A DNA stretch of 64,000 nt from a virus. Its lineage: Duplodnaviria; Caudoviricetes. The stretch covers positions 32,001 through 96,000 of IMG/VR virus record IMGVR_UViG_3300021256_000057. One strand, given 5' to 3'. Shown here piece by piece: positions 20,919 to 41,569 of this stretch; within the stretch, counting starts at the first letter, position 1, and the number at the start of each line of letters is the position of its first letter. The notes under the pieces were generated by a model that was not told the DNA's origin, did no database searches, and saw only the letters and a list, made by a program, of their open reading frames with translations. The position numbers and the translations under genes were made by a program.

Positions 20919-21233
20919 TTACAATTTTGCTACAAGAGCATCACTAGCATTGCCAACGTAAAGTTCACCAGTATCTACATCTTCGATCAAGATACCAGAT
21001 CTGTAACCGTTTGTCTCATTCCATGACATACCGATGATATCATAGTTCATAGACATAGGATCAAAAGTTCCTGCCATATCATCTGCAATGCCAGACTGCA
21101 CCATATCACGAAGCTCTTTCTTTGTGAACAGATACTCGCCAGGGAATCGCTTTGTTTGCTTACCGTACTTCTTGCCATTTGGAGCTGTCCACGCAGATGC
21201 GAGGATGCTTGATGATTTAATATATCTTACCAT
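20919..21233 (-). CDS. Leader-bearing small protein (MVRYIKSS)
   Basis: Conserved leader; GAGGTG RBS. Confidence 0.75.
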   Translation of the reverse strand: MVRYIKSSSILASAWTAPNGKKYGKQTKRFPGEYLFTKKELRDMVQSGIADDMAGTFDPMSMNYDIIGMSWNETNGYRSGILIEDVDTGELYVGNASDALVAKL

Positions 21234-21244
21234 GTTATATCACC

Positions 21245-21457
21245 TCATGAAATAATATCAGATATCCGATTCAAGGAGTCTTGAATACCTTCAGATGCAA
21301 GATATACCTGACTCGTAGCTGCGTCATTGTCATTTATTTCAGACATAATGCGCTTTGCCTCAGCAATGATAATTCTGCACTCCTTCAATATAGATTGCTT
21401 GCCTGATGTATCAAGATCCATTGAATTGTAATATGCAGATTTAATATATTTCTTCAT
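21245..21457 (-). CDS. Leader-bearing small protein (MKKYIKSA)
   Basis: Conserved leader; GAGGTG RBS. Confidence 0.7.
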   Translation of the reverse strand: MKKYIKSAYYNSMDLDTSGKQSILKECRIIIAEAKRIMSEINDNDAATSQVYLASEGIQDSLNRISDIIS

Positions 21458-21468
21458 TTTATATCACC

Positions 21469-21909
21469 TCATGTAGGATCGTACTCAGAAAAATACATAT
21501 TCATCAATTCATGCGCTAAAGACGGGTCATCCTCCCCTGCTCTAGCAAGAGTATCATTGAAGTAGATCTTACCCTGAGAATTGAATCCACATAGATAATA
21601 CTCCCTAAACAGGATGATAAGCTGCTTCAGTTCTTCTGAATAATCTGTATCCCCTTTGTCGATAGCTGTATTGATGCGTTTGCATTTTTCAAGTATTTGT
21701 GTTTGTAATGCAGTGCGCTGCGCTGACTGCATCCGTGTCATTTGTTCTGACAGATCACTGACGACCTTTGATTGATCTGTAACAGACTTTAGTATCTCCT
21801 TTGTATATCTCTTACCTGGATTGATCTTCTCCCAGTTATTAAGCACTGCAACGAGTACGGCAGATACAACAGGAGCTAAAACTGGAGCCAACTCTTTTAT
21901 AAATTCCAT
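21469..21909 (-). CDS. Membrane-anchored holin-associated-like protein
   Basis: N-terminal TM, coiled coil, Y..CG.N..G motif. Confidence 0.45.
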   Translation of the reverse strand: MEFIKELAPVLAPVVSAVLVAVLNNWEKINPGKRYTKEILKSVTDQSKVVSDLSEQMTRMQSAQRTALQTQILEKCKRINTAIDKGDTDYSEELKQLIILFREYYLCGFNSQGKIYFNDTLARAGEDDPSLAHELMNMYFSEYDPT

Positions 21910-25446: not shown

Positions 25447-25554
25447 ATAGCATCATCTCCTTTCAAGTTGGTCTCCTATTCTATATAACGAGTTATGCAA
25501 AATAAAAAGCCCATGCAGTATCAAAACTGCATGGTAAATCGTGTACTGTATTAG

Positions 25555-26102: not shown

Positions 26103-27833
26103 TTAGAAGCCAGGGATAGCGTTAAGGTAGACAACCTGATATAGCTCGTCAATATCATCTTGAAGGTCATCCCAGTCAGGAATGATATCCTTACCAGACT
26201 GAATCCAATAGATATTATTATCACCATCTAGGAACGTGATAGCTTCTGGTGTTACCTCTGCTCTGATATTATATACATCGCCATCATTTAGATGTTTATC
26301 AAGCAGAGCTACTACACCATCTGCAAGCGCCTGATAATACTCTACATTAGATTCTACAGGGGTCTTGTTAGTGCCAGGATTTGTATAAACGGATGCATTT
26401 ACGCAGTCGCAAGCCTCTACCAACTCTGGGTAGGCCTCATCTAGAATAGAGTATACGATATCGGCAAGTTCACTAGAAGAACGCTCGTAATCATGTGCAT
26501 ATGCATAGCACTCATCTACGATATTTGGATCGAGTTTAGTAGGTGTTCTGCTCTGGTACTCATCAAGGATCTCGGTCACAAGGGCAACTGACTTGTTCTC
26601 TTCATAGCCCATACCCTCTGGATCTTGTGAGAACTCATCCGGCTCGTATGTATTATCAAAATTGTCTACATCGATTCGAGATGCTGTAACAGAGTTATCA
26701 CAGGATGTGACATCTTCCTTACCGTTCCAGTAGCTCTGGAAATCACCGAGCTCCTCAACTTCTCCAGTTTCATTGTCAGTAATTCTAACAGCTCCACCGC
26801 GACCATGAAGTGAATCCGCCCACTTGACCGCCTTGTTGTAATCATCAAAGAACTTTACAGCAAGCGGTTCATTCTCACCCTGATCAAGAGCGACTTCATA
26901 TCTATGAGAATCGGTGGATGCTGTAACAGAGTTATCACAGGCCTCTACCCGCTGAAACTCCCACTGATCAGCGGTCTCATCCGCACCGAACTTCTGTACA
27001 TAATGTCTGAATGTCTCAGCTTCATTCTTCGCAGTGAACTCTGTCAAATAAGTGTTATAAGCATACCCACCGTTTTCGAGACCAACTACAACGGCATAGT
27101 CACCACGATACGGTTGTACGTTTACCTTATTTGGACCAGGGTTCTTTAGAGTACGATTGTACTTCTTCTCAATAGAAGTAGATGACTTAACATCACTCGT
27201 TCCGGAAGTGTCGTTTGATGTTTGCTGATACTCTGGATTAGGAACTCGTCTATGAATGATCCTATGAGCATATTGCGGTTCGTTCTCATCATACTCTTTC
27301 TTCGCCTTTTTGATCTCTGAATAGGTAGCACCTTTTTCAAATTCAAAAAGATCATCCCATCCGTATCCATAGTTACCTTGCAAAATAGCAACTTCAATGG
27401 TCTTGGGAGTTCTTGCGGCCTTTACAGTGTACTTCTTCTTGGTAGATGCATTTGTTCTTCCAGTTTTCGTGGAGCTCAAGATCCCATCTTTGTCATAGGA
27501 GTCATCAAATATTGATAGAACCTTTCCAGCAGTATATCCATTAGGTCTGCCATCTGGAACCCATTCATATTCTACATCGTATCTGCGATTACCTTTTTCG
27601 TAAATAGCGTAACCAGTTCCCGCTGAAGTGTCACCATATTCGGTCTGTACAAATCCTTGTTTTGACAGTGCATCATTTACAATACGGAAGTCCTTACCAA
27701 CCATACTTGTAATGGTATTTGCTGCGATCCTTGCAGAGGACTTAATGGACTTTTTCTTCTTCAACCTAGACATGCCACGTTTGGCCAGTGTCGATGATGC
27801 GACCATCCGCTTTTTATTTGTAGTGATCTTCAT
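26103..27833 (-). CDS. Leader-bearing multi-domain polyprotein
   Basis: Basic leader and internal [VI]-x-[AS]-[SC] linkers separating about six small domains. Confidence 0.8.
   Translation of the reverse strand: MKITTNKKRMVASSTLAKRGMSRLKKKKSIKSSARIAANTITSMVGKDFRIVNDALSKQGFVQTEYGDTSAGTGYAIYEKGNRRYDVEYEWVPDGRPNGYTAGKVLSIFDDSYDKDGILSSTKTGRTNASTKKKYTVKAARTPKTIEVAILQGNYGYGWDDLFEFEKGATYSEIKKAKKEYDENEPQYAHRIIHRRVPNPEYQQTSNDTSGTSDVKSSTSIEKKYNRTLKNPGPNKVNVQPYRGDYAVVVGLENGGYAYNTYLTEFTAKNEAETFRHYVQKFGADETADQWEFQRVEACDNSVTASTDSHRYEVALDQGENEPLAVKFFDDYNKAVKWADSLHGRGGAVRITDNETGEVEELGDFQSYWNGKEDVTSCDNSVTASRIDVDNFDNTYEPDEFSQDPEGMGYEENKSVALVTEILDEYQSRTPTKLDPNIVDECYAYAHDYERSSSELADIVYSILDEAYPELVEACDCVNASVYTNPGTNKTPVESNVEYYQALADGVVALLDKHLNDGDVYNIRAEVTPEAITFLDGDNNIYWIQSGKDIIPDWDDLQDDIDELYQVVYLNAIPGF
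26680..26941. repeat. 25-bp exact direct repeat encoding the linker CDNSVTAS
   Basis: gatgctgtaacagagttatcacagg at 26680-26704 and 26917-26941. Confidence 0.9.
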
Positions 27834-29060: not shown

Positions 29061-29203
29061 AATAACCCTCCTATTATTAGTAAAAATGTAGCCTATATGC
29101 TACGATTATATATAAGGTTAGATTTCTTATACTATATAACGAATGCTGATTAAAAAAATGACAATCCACTATCACAGTGGATTGCCACATAATATATTCA
29201 AAA

Positions 29204-30718: not shown

Positions 30719-31819
30719 TTACTCTGGAATCCCTACTTGTTCATCTGCATAGAAGATCTCGAAGTCAAGACCTTTCTGACCGCTTGCATAGAATGTATGA
30801 TCAGGATCCCCATCATAGTAATCCATTTCATCTTCAATGAGAGCTACAAAAACAGCAGCGGTGTCTCTTGGAGTACCGTCAAAATCAAAAGGATCACCAT
30901 ATTCATTACACCATTCCTGGAACTTCTCAAGAATTACCGGATCCTCACACAGTCTCTCGATAGTATCGGTAAGCTCATACACACTACCAGTAAACACCTT
31001 TTTGCCATTGAAGTACATTACAATGTCATCTGCATCATAAGAGCATGTGATCTTCTTAGCAGAGCTTACATAGTTCACATCATCAACAGAAAGACCAAGA
31101 TCATTTGCATACTCCATGTATTCATCTACTGCATAGTCCCATGTATGGATGATAAGGGTATTTGCATTAAATCTTGTGATCGTGTCTCCTGCGCTGAGTG
31201 CAGCGTTCTTTAGATCCATGATAGCACTTTGTTCTCCGATGAATGTAAGATCTACCTCTGCATCATCTACGGATGCAGTAACTCTACGCACATTGGAAGA
31301 TGAATAAATGCTCTTACCAAATTCATAGTTCTCATCAGTAACACCGCTGTACCATACAAGCTCTCCGTGTTTGTCTTGCATGTTACCAAGTTTTTCGATG
31401 CACTCTGCTTCACTGTCGCCACCGACCTCGCAGGTATATCCATCGGCAAACTCACCCTCTACTAGAAATGGGAAGATGAGCTGCCTTCCAGATGCCTTGA
31501 TAGCTCTACGAGATCTAACCTTAGTAGCACTATTGATATCCTCATCTACATATACGTTAGTTACCTTTCCGGCATGAGCATCGCCCTTACGCTTACCAGC
31601 TACCCAACGATACTGAAGCTCTACTTCCTTATTACCTTTTCGGTATACAGCGTAACCAGTGTTATCATCCTTATCGCCATATTCGTGTTCATGGTATCCA
31701 TCCATTGTAAGGATATCTCTTGCCTTGGTAAAGTCTGTGCCTTTAAGGGTAGCATAGTCCTTTGATGCTCGAATAGCACGTCTATGCTTATTAGCAAAAA
31801 CAGTATAGCGCTTCTTCAT
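30719..31819 (-). CDS. Leader-bearing four-domain polyprotein
   Basis: Linkers RRAIRAS, INSATKVRSRRAIKAS, IYSSSNVRRVTAS, VSSAKKITCS. Confidence 0.8.
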   Translation of the reverse strand: MKKRYTVFANKHRRAIRASKDYATLKGTDFTKARDILTMDGYHEHEYGDKDDNTGYAVYRKGNKEVELQYRWVAGKRKGDAHAGKVTNVYVDEDINSATKVRSRRAIKASGRQLIFPFLVEGEFADGYTCEVGGDSEAECIEKLGNMQDKHGELVWYSGVTDENYEFGKSIYSSSNVRRVTASVDDAEVDLTFIGEQSAIMDLKNAALSAGDTITRFNANTLIIHTWDYAVDEYMEYANDLGLSVDDVNYVSSAKKITCSYDADDIVMYFNGKKVFTGSVYELTDTIERLCEDPVILEKFQEWCNEYGDPFDFDGTPRDTAAVFVALIEDEMDYYDGDPDHTFYASGQKGLDFEIFYADEQVGIPE

Positions 31820-31825
31820 AACTTG

Positions 31826-32047
31826 TTATTCCTCCTCTGATAGCATCTGCGATACAAGATCAATGTATCCGTCTAGTGTTTGTCGAATATCATCAATAAG
31901 ATTCATAGCATCTTCGCTATGCCCCTTACGATCAATAGTTTCAAGCGCGACCTGGATGTAGTCCACATCCTCGGACAGCTCCTTGAGCATATCATTGACT
32001 GTGATTTCTTCCTGTACATCTGCCGCTTTAATATATCTCTTCATCAA
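31826..32047 (-). CDS. Leader-bearing small acidic protein (MKRYIKAA)
   Basis: Conserved leader. Confidence 0.7.
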   Translation of the reverse strand: MMKRYIKAADVQEEITVNDMLKELSEDVDYIQVALETIDRKGHSEDAMNLIDDIRQTLDGYIDLVSQMLSEEE

Positions 32048-33595: not shown

Positions 33596-33744
33596 AGAAT
33601 GTCACCTCAAATATAAAAGTGTTAGCTACAATGCGCTACACCCATATATAAGGTTAGAGTATCTACGATATATAACGATTTTAGGTATCAAAGAAAAGCA
33701 GCAAGCCCACAATAGAGCTTGCTACTAATGCCAATGAGAAATCA

Positions 33745-35795: not shown

Positions 35796-35882
35796 ATAGA
35801 TCACCTCTATCATATATAACGAATTTGAACACAAAAGAAACTGCCCATCCTATGTGGACGGGCAGTCTATGGATGTGATAGG

Positions 35883-39055: not shown

Positions 39056-39694
39056 TTACAGATCTCCGTAAAGATCTTTGAAATCTCTGATAGCTAGAAC
39101 TCTCCCAGAAGACGAATTTACATCATACCACTTGGTCTCTGTCATCTCTGTAGAAGACAGAACAAAGTCCTTACCGTGGATGTTCGTAAAGTATTCCTCG
39201 GCATCCTGCACAGTTGCATTGTCGAACTTCATATCAACATTTCCATTCTTATCGTAGTATTCACCGATGATATTGATAGGCTTATCGACAAGAGGTTGAC
39301 CATTCTTTGACCTCTCTGGCATAGGTGTAGTGACCAAAACAGCATCCTGCTCGTACTTCTTGCACCAGGATACCATCAGCTTAATGAAGTCCCTAGGTGC
39401 AAATCTATTATTGATCACGCAGAATGTGTCCTCAGAAACTCGGACCTCATCATCAGTATCCTTGTTCTCTATAAAGCCACCAGATGCTTTGATGAACGTT
39501 AGACCAGAAGCCCTAATGTCCGCCTCTAGTTGCTTGTTACGTCTACGTTTCTCGTTCGTACTTAGTTTCTCACCATCGGAGCTGTACTCTCTAAATGCCG
39601 TAATGAAACCACACTGCTCTTTGTTCATATGCGATATTGCACGATTGAAACTCGATGCATAAATTCCCTCTGAAGACTTGATATATCTTTTCAT
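39056..39694 (-). CDS. Leader-bearing DUF3293-like protein (MKRYIKSS)
   Basis: GFITAFR...RN..L..DI...G.F.E...E..F...KKYEQDAVL pattern. Confidence 0.65.
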   Translation of the reverse strand: MKRYIKSSEGIYASSFNRAISHMNKEQCGFITAFREYSSDGEKLSTNEKRRRNKQLEADIRASGLTFIKASGGFIENKDTDDEVRVSEDTFCVINNRFAPRDFIKLMVSWCKKYEQDAVLVTTPMPERSKNGQPLVDKPINIIGEYYDKNGNVDMKFDNATVQDAEEYFTNIHGKDFVLSSTEMTETKWYDVNSSSGRVLAIRDFKDLYGDL

Positions 39695-39784: not shown

Positions 39785-40657
39785 TTATAAATGCATGTAC
39801 GGAACTTCGTATCCATCTGCTTTATGCTTAATGTCTAGCAGTGTTGCAGACAGCTCTACACGCTTTAGCTCTGATGCCAAGTGAATCAGATCGTCAATGT
39901 TATCGCAAATGTATCTAATTGCGTCAGAATTATTATCTTTTGCAGCGTAAACAAGCAGATCTAACACGATCGGTTGTTTTGTTTGAACGAACTCCTCTAT
40001 TATTGTGATGTCTTTAGTTGTCATATAATCGTAGATGTATTCAAAATATGGGGATTTTAATGCAGTCTTTGTCGAGTTCCCGCTAAAGAAAAAAGTAGTT
40101 CCATTGATGGATATTGATCTAAGATTTGTACTTTCTACATCAAATGCATTTTTATGCACGACCGTAGAGGTGCTATCCAGTACGACCTGCTCTACATTAG
40201 AGCAATCACAAAATGCGTTACATCCAACAGCCTCTATTGAACAAGGAATGTGTATATATTTTAGCGAACGACACCCACTAAACGCTCGGTCGTTAATTTC
40301 CTTCAACGATTTTGGAAACTGTATTGATGGCAAAGCACTACACGCATAAAAAGCGTATTCTCCGATAGTTGTGAGATTTTTTGGCAAATTCACGTTTTCT
40401 AGCTTAAACAATTGTGCAAATGCCTGCGTCTCTATTGTTGTGACTGAATCTGGAATACAAACACTCGTAACATTATGATTATACTTAAACGCAGCAGTAC
40501 CGATCGCTTTTACTACGTTCGGTATCTTTACATTTACTGACTGAATGCCTAGGGTTTCTTCAAATCTAGTAAGAATGTCTTTGTATATGTGAAATACGCC
40601 GGTCTCATCTATGATGTCTTTACTATATCTATTGATCTGCCTTTCTTTAATAATCAT
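39785..40657 (-). CDS. BspA-type leucine-rich-repeat (LRR_5) protein
   Basis: Repeats IP.SV..I...AF..C..L. Confidence 0.9.
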   Translation of the reverse strand: MIIKERQINRYSKDIIDETGVFHIYKDILTRFEETLGIQSVNVKIPNVVKAIGTAAFKYNHNVTSVCIPDSVTTIETQAFAQLFKLENVNLPKNLTTIGEYAFYACSALPSIQFPKSLKEINDRAFSGCRSLKYIHIPCSIEAVGCNAFCDCSNVEQVVLDSTSTVVHKNAFDVESTNLRSISINGTTFFFSGNSTKTALKSPYFEYIYDYMTTKDITIIEEFVQTKQPIVLDLLVYAAKDNNSDAIRYICDNIDDLIHLASELKRVELSATLLDIKHKADGYEVPYMHL

Positions 40658-40669
40658 GAGAATCTCCAA

Positions 40670-41545
40670 TCAAAGCCACATAGATCTATTTTGGTACATG
40701 GTGCTACCGCAAGTATTCAAAATCTCTGCGGCAACGTCGGTTCTACCATAATCTGATGCAAATTCAAGTAGCTTATCTGCATTTTGAATGATATCCTGCT
40801 TTACATCATTATCTTTCTTTGAGATTTGTACCACTAGGTCGAGTGCAAAGGAAAATCCATTCTGTAGCAGGAAGAGGATTTGACTGTAGTCGTGACAACA
40901 TAGGAATGCCATACAGCGCTTGATAGCTTCTGTGAATCCAATAGTTCCTTCTGTATACGATACATTTAACGTAATGCTTGGGAATTCTATGACTTTGACA
41001 GAGCTACAACCATCGAATACGCCATGATCCATACTTATGTTGTCAGATTTGAACTCTATTGTTTCTAAGCCAGTACAATTACAAAATGCATGAGAATCAA
41101 TTGTTATTATACCACTTGGCAACACTAGGTTTTTTAGGGACATACACGCAAGAAACGCATATTTACCAATTTTCCAAAGAGTGTCAGGTAACTGCACATT
41201 TACAAGTCTTTCACAACAAGAAAATGCATGTGGTTCTATTCGTTCAAGGTTTTCAGATATCTTAACTTCCTCAAGATTGTGACACCTCTCAAACGCCTCT
41301 TCCTCGATTACACGCACAGTGTTAGGCAATATAATTCCACGAATCTTGCTGCAGTCAAGAAACGCAAACTGATGGATGATCTCAACACCATTTGGGATGG
41401 TGTAAGTGGCAACCTCTTTAGAATAAGAGGCCTCTTCAAAGTATCTCCAAAAAATGTTACCAATGCAATGCCCTGTACCATGGTCGCTGACAAAAGCAAC
41501 CGTAGGACCGTGGTCAGTAATCATAGGACCATGACAAGCAATCAT
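40670..41545 (-). CDS. BspA-type LRR_5 protein
   Basis: LRR_5 repeats; C-terminal domain similar to both neighbours. Confidence 0.9.
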   Translation of the reverse strand: MIACHGPMITDHGPTVAFVSDHGTGHCIGNIFWRYFEEASYSKEVATYTIPNGVEIIHQFAFLDCSKIRGIILPNTVRVIEEEAFERCHNLEEVKISENLERIEPHAFSCCERLVNVQLPDTLWKIGKYAFLACMSLKNLVLPSGIITIDSHAFCNCTGLETIEFKSDNISMDHGVFDGCSSVKVIEFPSITLNVSYTEGTIGFTEAIKRCMAFLCCHDYSQILFLLQNGFSFALDLVVQISKKDNDVKQDIIQNADKLLEFASDYGRTDVAAEILNTCGSTMYQNRSMWL

Positions 41546-41569
41546 GCCATCTCACCCCCGGCAATAGTA

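Follow-up and report, generated by a model that had tools for sequence, protein, structure and literature searches.

The gene considered here is a minus-strand open reading frame (ORF) encoding 576 amino acids (aa), which lies in a 64,000-nucleotide (nt) stretch of a tailed-phage genome (IMGVR_UViG_3300021256_000057, positions 32,001 to 96,000), henceforth the window. The window comes from an IMG/VR virus record of 183,567 bp, whose completeness CheckV puts at 100%. An earlier note on this DNA had read the gene product as a phage polyprotein, made of about six mini-domains joined by protease-site linkers, with a footprint of cassette insertion in the DNA. The ORF at 26103-27833 is real, and every linker string named in that note was found where it had been placed. 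The parts of the gene are given below with window coordinates; a vertical bar marks the presumed scissile bond, P numbers denote collected related proteins, pLDDT is the predicted local distance difference test of the structural model, and L014 is a 98%-identical locus that was the only one of its kind found in a metagenome scan.

26103-27833, minus strand: polyprotein ORF, 576 aa, from the ORF call and homologue comparison.
27720-27833, minus strand: basic leader, residues 1-38, pLDDT <50, with three nested [VIM]-x-[AS] sites (MVA|S, IKS|S, IAA|N).
27474-27719, minus strand: module M1, residues 39-120, an alpha/beta domain in the model, with a paralogue as the first module of the ORF at 30719-31819.
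27417-27473, minus strand: linker L1, residues 121-139, S|STKTGRTNA|STKKKYTVKA|A, pLDDT <50 at 123-139.
27216-27416, minus strand: module M2, residues 140-206, LQGNYGYGWDDL domain, phrog_34889, with >100 homologues, which include many stand-alone proteins (49-87 aa).
27180-27215, minus strand: linker L2, residues 207-218, ..SDVKS|S (213-217), from the sequence.
26946-27179, minus strand: module M3, residues 219-296, which moves as a unit among P0005-P0008 and is unfolded in the AlphaFold model.
26916-26945, minus strand: linker L3, residues 296-305, (V)EACDNSVTA|S, from the sequence and the 25-nt repeat.
26709-26915, minus strand: module M4, residues 307-375, the bracketed cassette, from the model, variable among relatives.
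26679-26708, minus strand: linker L4, residues 375-384, VTSCDNSVTA|S, from the sequence and the 25-nt repeat.
26421-26678, minus strand: module M5, residues 386-471, helical and acidic, from the model, with stand-alone relatives P0070 and P0072.
26391-26420, minus strand: linker L5, residues 472-480, VEACDCVNA|S, from the sequence.
26106-26390, minus strand: module M6, residues 482-576, from homologue comparison, with stand-alone relative P0177.
26917-26941, no strand assigned: 25-nt exact direct repeat, copy 1, an exact match that is intact in L014.
26680-26704, no strand assigned: 25-nt exact direct repeat, copy 2, likewise exact and intact in L014.

The leader has 13 K+R, no D/E and an isoelectric point (pI) of 12, and carries the strings KKRMVA|SS, KSIKS|SA and ARIAA|NT; the region of the first linker, at residues 117-139, reads GILS|S..TNA|S..KKKYTVKA|A. 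We ran AlphaFold2 on the whole chain, using a 54-sequence alignment, and obtained compact domains at 40-120, 141-205, 310-364, 385-475 and 495-575 (block pLDDT 80-97), separated by regions of pLDDT <50 at 6-36, 123-139, 207-309, 365-384 and 475-494, each proposed linker falling inside such a disordered stretch. According to this model the chain is beads on a string, i.e. small domains on disordered linkers. A single fold across the linkers, which the earlier note had named as an outcome that would speak against it, did not appear, the predicted domains being separate, with a predicted template-modelling score of 0.32. As for the count of about six mini-domains, five were folded by AlphaFold, and the sixth (M3) comes from homology alone, recognised as it is by its travel as a unit in relatives and by a weak PHROG match. 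M1, M4, M5 and M6 are acidic (pI 4.1-4.6), and M2 (pI 6.1) and M3 (pI 6.5) are near neutral. Throughout the polyprotein family MKI..K.. is the constant start and M6, in nearly all members, the constant final or near-final module (P0025 and P0028 have modules beyond it), and either M6 or this start could serve in incorporation. Cysteines are frequent at the joints, both here (VEACDNSVTAS, VEACDCVNAS) and in relatives (KSIKCS, STVCAS, SVCAS, KACDNITA).

That the modules are independent units can be seen from their homologues. An exhaustive HMMER search gave 219 matches in separate groups for residues 38-120, 138-205, 300-390, 384-483 and 492-576, so that each segment of the chain matches different proteins, and three segments match three different small PHROGs. 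The stand-alone homologues for which the earlier note had advised searching were found for M2 (49-87 aa), M5 (P0070, P0072) and M6 (P0177). M2 occurs 123 times among the collected proteins, either alone, inside chains of up to 1454 aa, or behind N-terminal tags such as MKRYIKS|ARTPK and MKVYIKS|ARVGK. Its stand-alone forms start M-MRTPKTIEV or M-KTNPKTIEI, which is at the predicted P1' of VKA|ARTPKTIEV. Upstream of M2, in otherwise unrelated sequence, one finds [LIMV]-x-E|[AS]R in other lineages versus [VI]-x-A|AR here, with 34 cases each. In P0113, a 644-aa protein from another lineage, an S77 prohead protease domain is followed by several domains, including a copy of M2 preceded by LIE|R, and this protein is, judging by its domain order, a protease-cargo fusion. 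In P0043, M2 is joined to an ArdA domain via KPIKA|ST, and distant M2-containing proteins carry LPD11 or ArdA. Other searches were poorer: Foldseek of the whole polyprotein model against PDB gave nothing meaningful, M2 matched only uncharacterised small phage proteins in BFVD and the ESM Atlas, scans of IMG/VR with the polyprotein and with the 25-mer gave no match, the GenBank phage collection gave a single weak match to M2, and ten related IMG/VR phages, with major capsid proteins (MCPs) 54-67% identical, had no homologue of the polyprotein.

The DNA of the gene shows how such chains may have been assembled. The exact direct repeat of 25 nt reported in the earlier note (26680-26704 and 26917-26941) does bracket one module, M4, and it is the longest exact direct repeat within 21000-45000 (24 kb); by our own arithmetic the expectation of a chance 25-mer repeat within 1.7 kb is ~1e-9. 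The repeat encodes CDNSVTAS, and since the 8 shared codons are identical at all synonymous positions, its identity exceeds the protein requirement. The third similar linker, VEACDCVNAS, differs from the 25-nt copies at synonymous sites (repeat family D3), and the exact codons of the two copies, as opposed to the third, thus indicate that the two have a recent common DNA origin, beyond a common peptide. Both copies are also intact in the 98%-identical phage L014.

We then compared relatives that are 81-95% identical to the polyprotein over common parts, reading the joints of P0003-P0008 at protein level. P0004 and P0008 read VEACDNSVTA|SRID, so that exactly M4, the module between the two repeats, is missing, and P0003 has a different, longer module in its place between the same two linkers. 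In P0005-P0008 M1 or M1-M2 have been exchanged for other modules, joined by NKSVKA|SSS, KKRIMA|SGY or NKYTVKA|[AS], and two N-terminal modules stand in opposite order in P0005 and P0007. M3 is found behind five different upstream partners, its similarity starting 1-3 residues past the site, and M4 turns up in the unrelated chains P0044, P0014 and P0016, again ending ..SCDNSVTA|S. L014, whose related DNA is 98% identical, differs at 56 nucleotides, and 20 of these differences are synonymous ones crowded into codons 235-295; this is M3, flanked by its two linkers, and the pattern is what one would expect of a cassette from a more distant allele. These near-identical relatives bear out the proposed modular exchange at linkers, including gain, loss or replacement of exactly the repeat-bracketed module: they show modules gained, lost, replaced or reordered there, and for M4 gain and loss both fit. 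Conservation of the joints, in contrast to the modules, suggests that it is by recombination at the joints that modules are added, deleted, replaced and reordered.

The joint peptide itself is not confined to this chain, and the other genes of the window in which it matters are the following.

48497-50002, minus strand: prohead protease (gp21 fold, ~10-150) fused to a coiled-coil scaffold, 501 aa, from PHROG and fold search, with 11 motif sites.
47009-48478, minus strand: gp23-type MCP with a basic N-terminal leader, Pfam Gp23 5.5e-18, with sites AITA|G, SITA|G, RVMA|N and PVTA|S.
30719-31819, minus strand: second polyprotein, 366 aa, its first module paralogous to M1, with 4 motifs found versus 0.25 expected.
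39056-39694, minus strand: tagged gene with an MKRYIKS start, S-adenosylmethionine (S-AdoMet) lyase by Pfam (PF23780, 32.6 bits versus a cut-off of 28), with four joint-type motifs near the N-terminus.
41570-42427, minus strand: tagged gene (MVRYIRA) with BspA-type LRR_5 repeats (PF13306, 1e-55), the first of three tandem ORFs in 39785-42427 and the sole one scanned.

From 85 non-redundant linkers of the polyprotein family we derived the joint consensus K-K-[Y/F/K]-[T/S]-V-K-A|S, and this peptide is conserved as protein with varying codons. About 16 ORFs of the genome, all on one strand and near the head genes (genome 53-76 kb, plus 124 kb), begin M[KV]RYI[KR][SA] or carry KKRYTVKA near their start; it is thus a short N-terminal tag on otherwise unrelated proteins, and it is also found in related phages. 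At P1 the short tags have S, A, G, P, N or T. When every ORF of the genome (~250) was subjected to composition-preserving shuffles and scored for the motif [VI][KRTMN][AS][SAN], the six most enriched were the polyprotein (6 versus 0.54 expected), the protease-scaffold (6 versus 0.8), the MCP (5 versus 0.82), the second polyprotein (4 versus 0.25), the tagged S-AdoMet-lyase homologue (4 versus 0.23) and one ORF outside the window. As a control for directionality we counted [VI]x[AS][SAN] against the reversed pattern: the counts were 138 versus 41 in 12 protease-scaffold orthologues, 27 versus 5 in the first 75 residues of 12 MCPs (35 versus 40 in the rest of the MCPs), about 10 versus 3 in each polyprotein, and 245 versus 219 in the remaining 57 kaa (thousand amino acids) of the proteome. 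By these counts the motif is directional, and enriched in the polyproteins, the MCP leader and the protease-scaffold only.

The protease to which these sites would belong is present and apparently intact, as judged from its sequence and model. It matches the PHROG 'head maturation protease' (E 1e-20), with Pfam Peptidase_S77 just under threshold, and Foldseek places its model closest to T4 gp21 (5jbl, TM 0.61, probability 1.0, root-mean-square deviation 3.2 Å, 141 columns), with the herpesvirus proteases next; a phmmer search against PDB sequences gave coiled-coil noise only, so that the identification came from the fold search. All ten sequences of an alignment (nine orthologues and P0113) have His63 and Ser118. 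The protease domain is followed directly by FT[EA]IAA|ST, which reads FTEIAA|ST in 11 of the 12 orthologues, and the coiled coil behind it spans about 220 residues (224-446). The 11 motif sites of the protease-scaffold are positionally conserved in the 12 orthologues, and scaffold sites such as ET[VI]TA|S and K[VI][ET][AS]|S keep their position while their surroundings diverge. In the MCP leader, the sites RRP[IV]TA|[GS]TSIT[AS]|G and K[VI]MA|S[FY] have conserved positions in the orthologues. Glu is absent altogether from the leader and L1 of the polyprotein, and from the MCP leaders ahead of the conserved core. Two further ideas about the motif were dropped: a Glu-specific protease, given the lack of Glu in the leader, L1 and the MCP leaders, and cutting of the A-x-A-like motif by signal peptidase, given that the leaders are purely basic and have no hydrophobic segment. 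The scaffold's C-terminus (48497-48560) is acidic (..DDEDDDYY..), and the leaders of the MCP (48350-48478) and of the cargo chain (27720-27833) are strongly basic; it is conceivable, from these charges, that the acidic tail of the scaffold recruits basic leaders electrostatically.

Since the joints carry the same short peptide as the MCP leader and the scaffold, the chain is probably head-loaded and protease-cut. Our preferred interpretation, which we hold to be reasonably probable on these sequence comparisons, is that the 576-residue chain is head cargo resembling the T4 internal proteins, cut at V-x-A|S by the gp21-fold protease. The precursor, with its basic leader, would enter the assembling prohead alongside the scaffold core, and the protease, of gp21/assemblin fold, would cut behind the small residue at every linker, so that the freed modules of 7-11 kDa would remain in the head and later enter the host with the DNA, as T4 internal proteins do. 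The recognition peptide in leader and linkers would be (K/R)(K/R)(Y/F)(T/S)[VI]-x-[AS]|[SAN], the same that occurs in the MCP leader and many times in the protease-scaffold. Considering the distribution of the motif, a site for the head protease appears to be the most economical reading of the joint peptide. For the protease-site linkers of the earlier note there is indirect support: a directional motif common to the MCP leader and the protease-scaffold, a predicted disordered setting, stand-alone homologues that start at P1', and a T4-type [LI]-x-E| at the same junction in other lineages. Its two other proposals fared less well. The term effectors is a guess, supported only by tagged neighbours and relatives that carry S-AdoMet lyase or ArdA. 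That one tag loads several proteins is likewise no more than a possibility, given that every linker resembles the N-terminal tag. Still, the tagged S-AdoMet lyase, the M2-ArdA protein P0043 and the tagged leucine-rich-repeat gene fit the precedent of the T4 internal proteins.

Several observations weigh against this interpretation. The characterised gp21-type proteases (T4, phiKZ, SPN3US) cut after Glu (PMC10052503). The maturation site of the MCP is ambiguous, as PVTA|S, which is nearest to the conserved core, is found only in this phage, and no isolated phage has an MCP with >27% identity. The polyprotein has no Pfam family, and the searches run gave no module a function. M3 (219-296) is left unfolded by AlphaFold2 (pLDDT <30). 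The polyprotein gene shares its operon with a RecU-like resolvase and is not part of the head operon. Finally, tags of related phages end in N or T (MKRYIKN, MKRYIKT) and two tags of the window end in G or P, so that the tag may be a targeting signal that is not always cut.

One may also consider that the chain is never cut and acts, perhaps after injection, as a whole multi-domain 'polyvalent' protein, in which the joint peptide would serve binding or targeting (with scaffold, DNA or portal as partner) or would be left over from the fusion of adjacent tagged genes. Many-domain phage proteins are well documented, some of them delivered intact (PMC5512222), and like the polyvalent proteins of Iyer et al. 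2017 (PMC5512222), which combine two to 15 unrelated domains in one polypeptide thought to be co-delivered with DNA, the polyprotein has several unrelated domains in one chain. M2 also has relatives in proteins that carry LPD11 (others carry ArdA), and the N-terminal tags vary at the putative P1. Yet a Pfam search of the polyprotein found none of the catalogued polyvalent domains (LPDs, MPTase, ArdC-N etc.) and no embedded peptidase such as MPTase; unlike in polyvalent proteins, processing would be in trans, by the head protease, at standardised linkers between modules of 67-95 aa. Moreover, the directional motif is abundant in the scaffold and the MCP leader, both of which are cut away in gp23/gp21-type heads, homologues that stand alone have their start at P1', and other lineages have the T4 cleavage rule at the same junction. 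We therefore regard an uncut chain as unlikely.

Another scenario accepts cutting in the head, and takes the products to be internal structural or assembly proteins (core, inner body, DNA-condensing) rather than host-directed effectors. One would expect a constant leader and a constant last or near-last M6 for an assembly role, one phage has M2 fused to the protease-scaffold itself, and fold searches found no recognisable anti-defence fold in any module. Nevertheless, rapid changes of presence, absence and order among relatives that are >90% identical are atypical of structural parts, and ArdA and S-AdoMet lyase are found in related chains and in tagged neighbours, which makes a purely structural role improbable.

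Alternatively, the linkers could be cut by an enzyme other than the S77 prohead protease, either another phage protease or a host protease of the Prp type. Prp trims ribosomal protein L27, as well as capsid and scaffold proteins of the staphylococcal phage 80alpha, before Ser, its motif being ..FFA|S. The A|S scissile pair does resemble sites of other small-residue proteases, and known gp21-type enzymes prefer Glu (PMC10052503), but the resident protease has the assemblin/gp21 fold, the Prp motif is unlike KKYTVKA|S, and the joint motif lies exactly between protease domain and scaffold (FTEIAA|ST), like the R-site of herpesviruses (PMC4498786); we consider the involvement of another enzyme quite improbable. 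Hardly credible at all is the absence of any virion role, with MKRYIK words as translation-start or recombination sequences and the polyprotein as a neutral fusion of neighbouring small genes, because even though the tag is A/T-rich and travels with a ribosome-binding site as DNA (repeat family D1), the joint peptide is kept as protein with varying codons, is directional and is common to the MCP leader and the scaffold.

The joint travel of tag and ribosome-binding site is seen in a 36-nt repeat of 86% identity (21214-21249 and 21438-21473) that covers GAGGTGATATAAC-ATG-GTA-AGA-TAT-ATT-AAA. Outside the window, a further tagged ORF at genome 124070-124672 reads ..RYRKYVRA|SEE, and a 366-aa ORF at genome 138306-139406 has 3 motifs versus 0.2 expected; both are distant from the main cluster. 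Near the head genes, an ORF of 111 aa (45470-45805, minus strand) lies between the head-tail adaptor gene (45824-46534), of which it is immediately downstream, and a 363-aa ORF (44310-45401), of which it is upstream. Its basic leader ends RRVMA|E, two more motif sites, KAVKA|S and RPVRA|G, are situated towards the C-terminus, and by analogy with T4 gp67/gp68 its product may be a small core protein that is processed as they are. As to expression, the intergenic word TCGTTATATA[GT] is repeated upstream of minus-strand operons (25481-25491, 29132-29142, 33668-33678 and 35812-35822, minus strand), and two copies have TCTAACCTTATATAT and a short hairpin after them, about 12 nt on. The word is a candidate phage-specific promoter; its copy at 29132 is situated between the operon of the polyprotein gene and a terminator (29188-29158).

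Returning to cargo that is cut in the head, the closest precedent is in T4. The internal proteins IPI, IPII, IPIII and Alt are described (PMC3012670, PMC12373910; Repoila et al. 1994 as cited there) as having a capsid targeting sequence and being processed by gp21. They have only the targeting leader in common and inhibit restriction enzymes (PMC3012670, PMC12373910). The genes described here resemble them in the short conserved N-terminal tag on otherwise unrelated small proteins, which would end at a protease site, as well as in the gp23/gp21-type head, the hypervariable loci and a presumed cargo that includes anti-restriction functions. Unlike in T4, a single ORF strings together several cargo modules, which have the tag-like peptide as their recurring joint, the presumed bond is [VI]-x-[AS]|[SAN] instead of [LI]-x-E|, the tag has 7 residues (MKRYIKS), and the system is known from sequence alone. 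Giant phages offer a second comparison, since gp175 of phiKZ and gp245 of SPN3US, both gp21-type proteases, process a large number of head and ejection proteins and make several cuts in a substrate (PMC10052503). There, in contrast, N-terminal propeptides are cut after Glu and one mature fragment is left, with no string of folded modules.

The cleavage rule itself has its nearest likeness in herpesviruses, where the pUL26 protease is freed from the scaffold at the R-site and the scaffold is trimmed at the M-site, the sites of pseudorabies virus being YLQA-T and VQA-S (PMC4498786). The phage protease shares with herpesvirus assemblin the fold, the protease-scaffold fusion, presumed cuts after Ala before Ser/Thr with a hydrophobic P3, and a site right after the protease domain. 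It differs in belonging to a bacteriophage, in having many more sites, located in scaffold and cargo chains, and in that its specificity is read from sequence. In the literature on tag strings and on phage polyproteins with head-protease linkers we found no description of such a system.

These comparisons allow a broader, more tentative proposal, which we regard as possible but would not yet bet on: that the cargo is plug-and-play, any small protein becoming head cargo by gaining a joint of 7-9 residues matched to the resident protease, with chains rebuilt at the joints. In the same tentative scheme, M2 would move between lineages with different protease rules, as in V-K-A|A versus L-x-E|A at the same junction, and this lineage would offer a bacterial-virus example in which a gp21-fold protease follows the V-x-A|S rule of herpesviruses.

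Proteins that enter the host with the injected phage DNA are active before any gene of the phage is expressed, and as a source of counter-defence functions they are largely unexplored. If our interpretation is true, the tag or joint peptide together with a matching protease would make it possible to recognise head cargo directly in metagenomic phage genomes, and the arrangement would be a natural blueprint for packing several foreign proteins into a capsid by means of a single gene. The near-isogenic variants in which a module is present, absent or replaced are ready material for studying the effect of single modules. The interpretation, if true, would moreover connect the gp21-type proteases of phages with the cleavage rule of herpesviruses, and it would mean that polyprotein processing, known from RNA viruses, delivers sets of small proteins in tailed phages.

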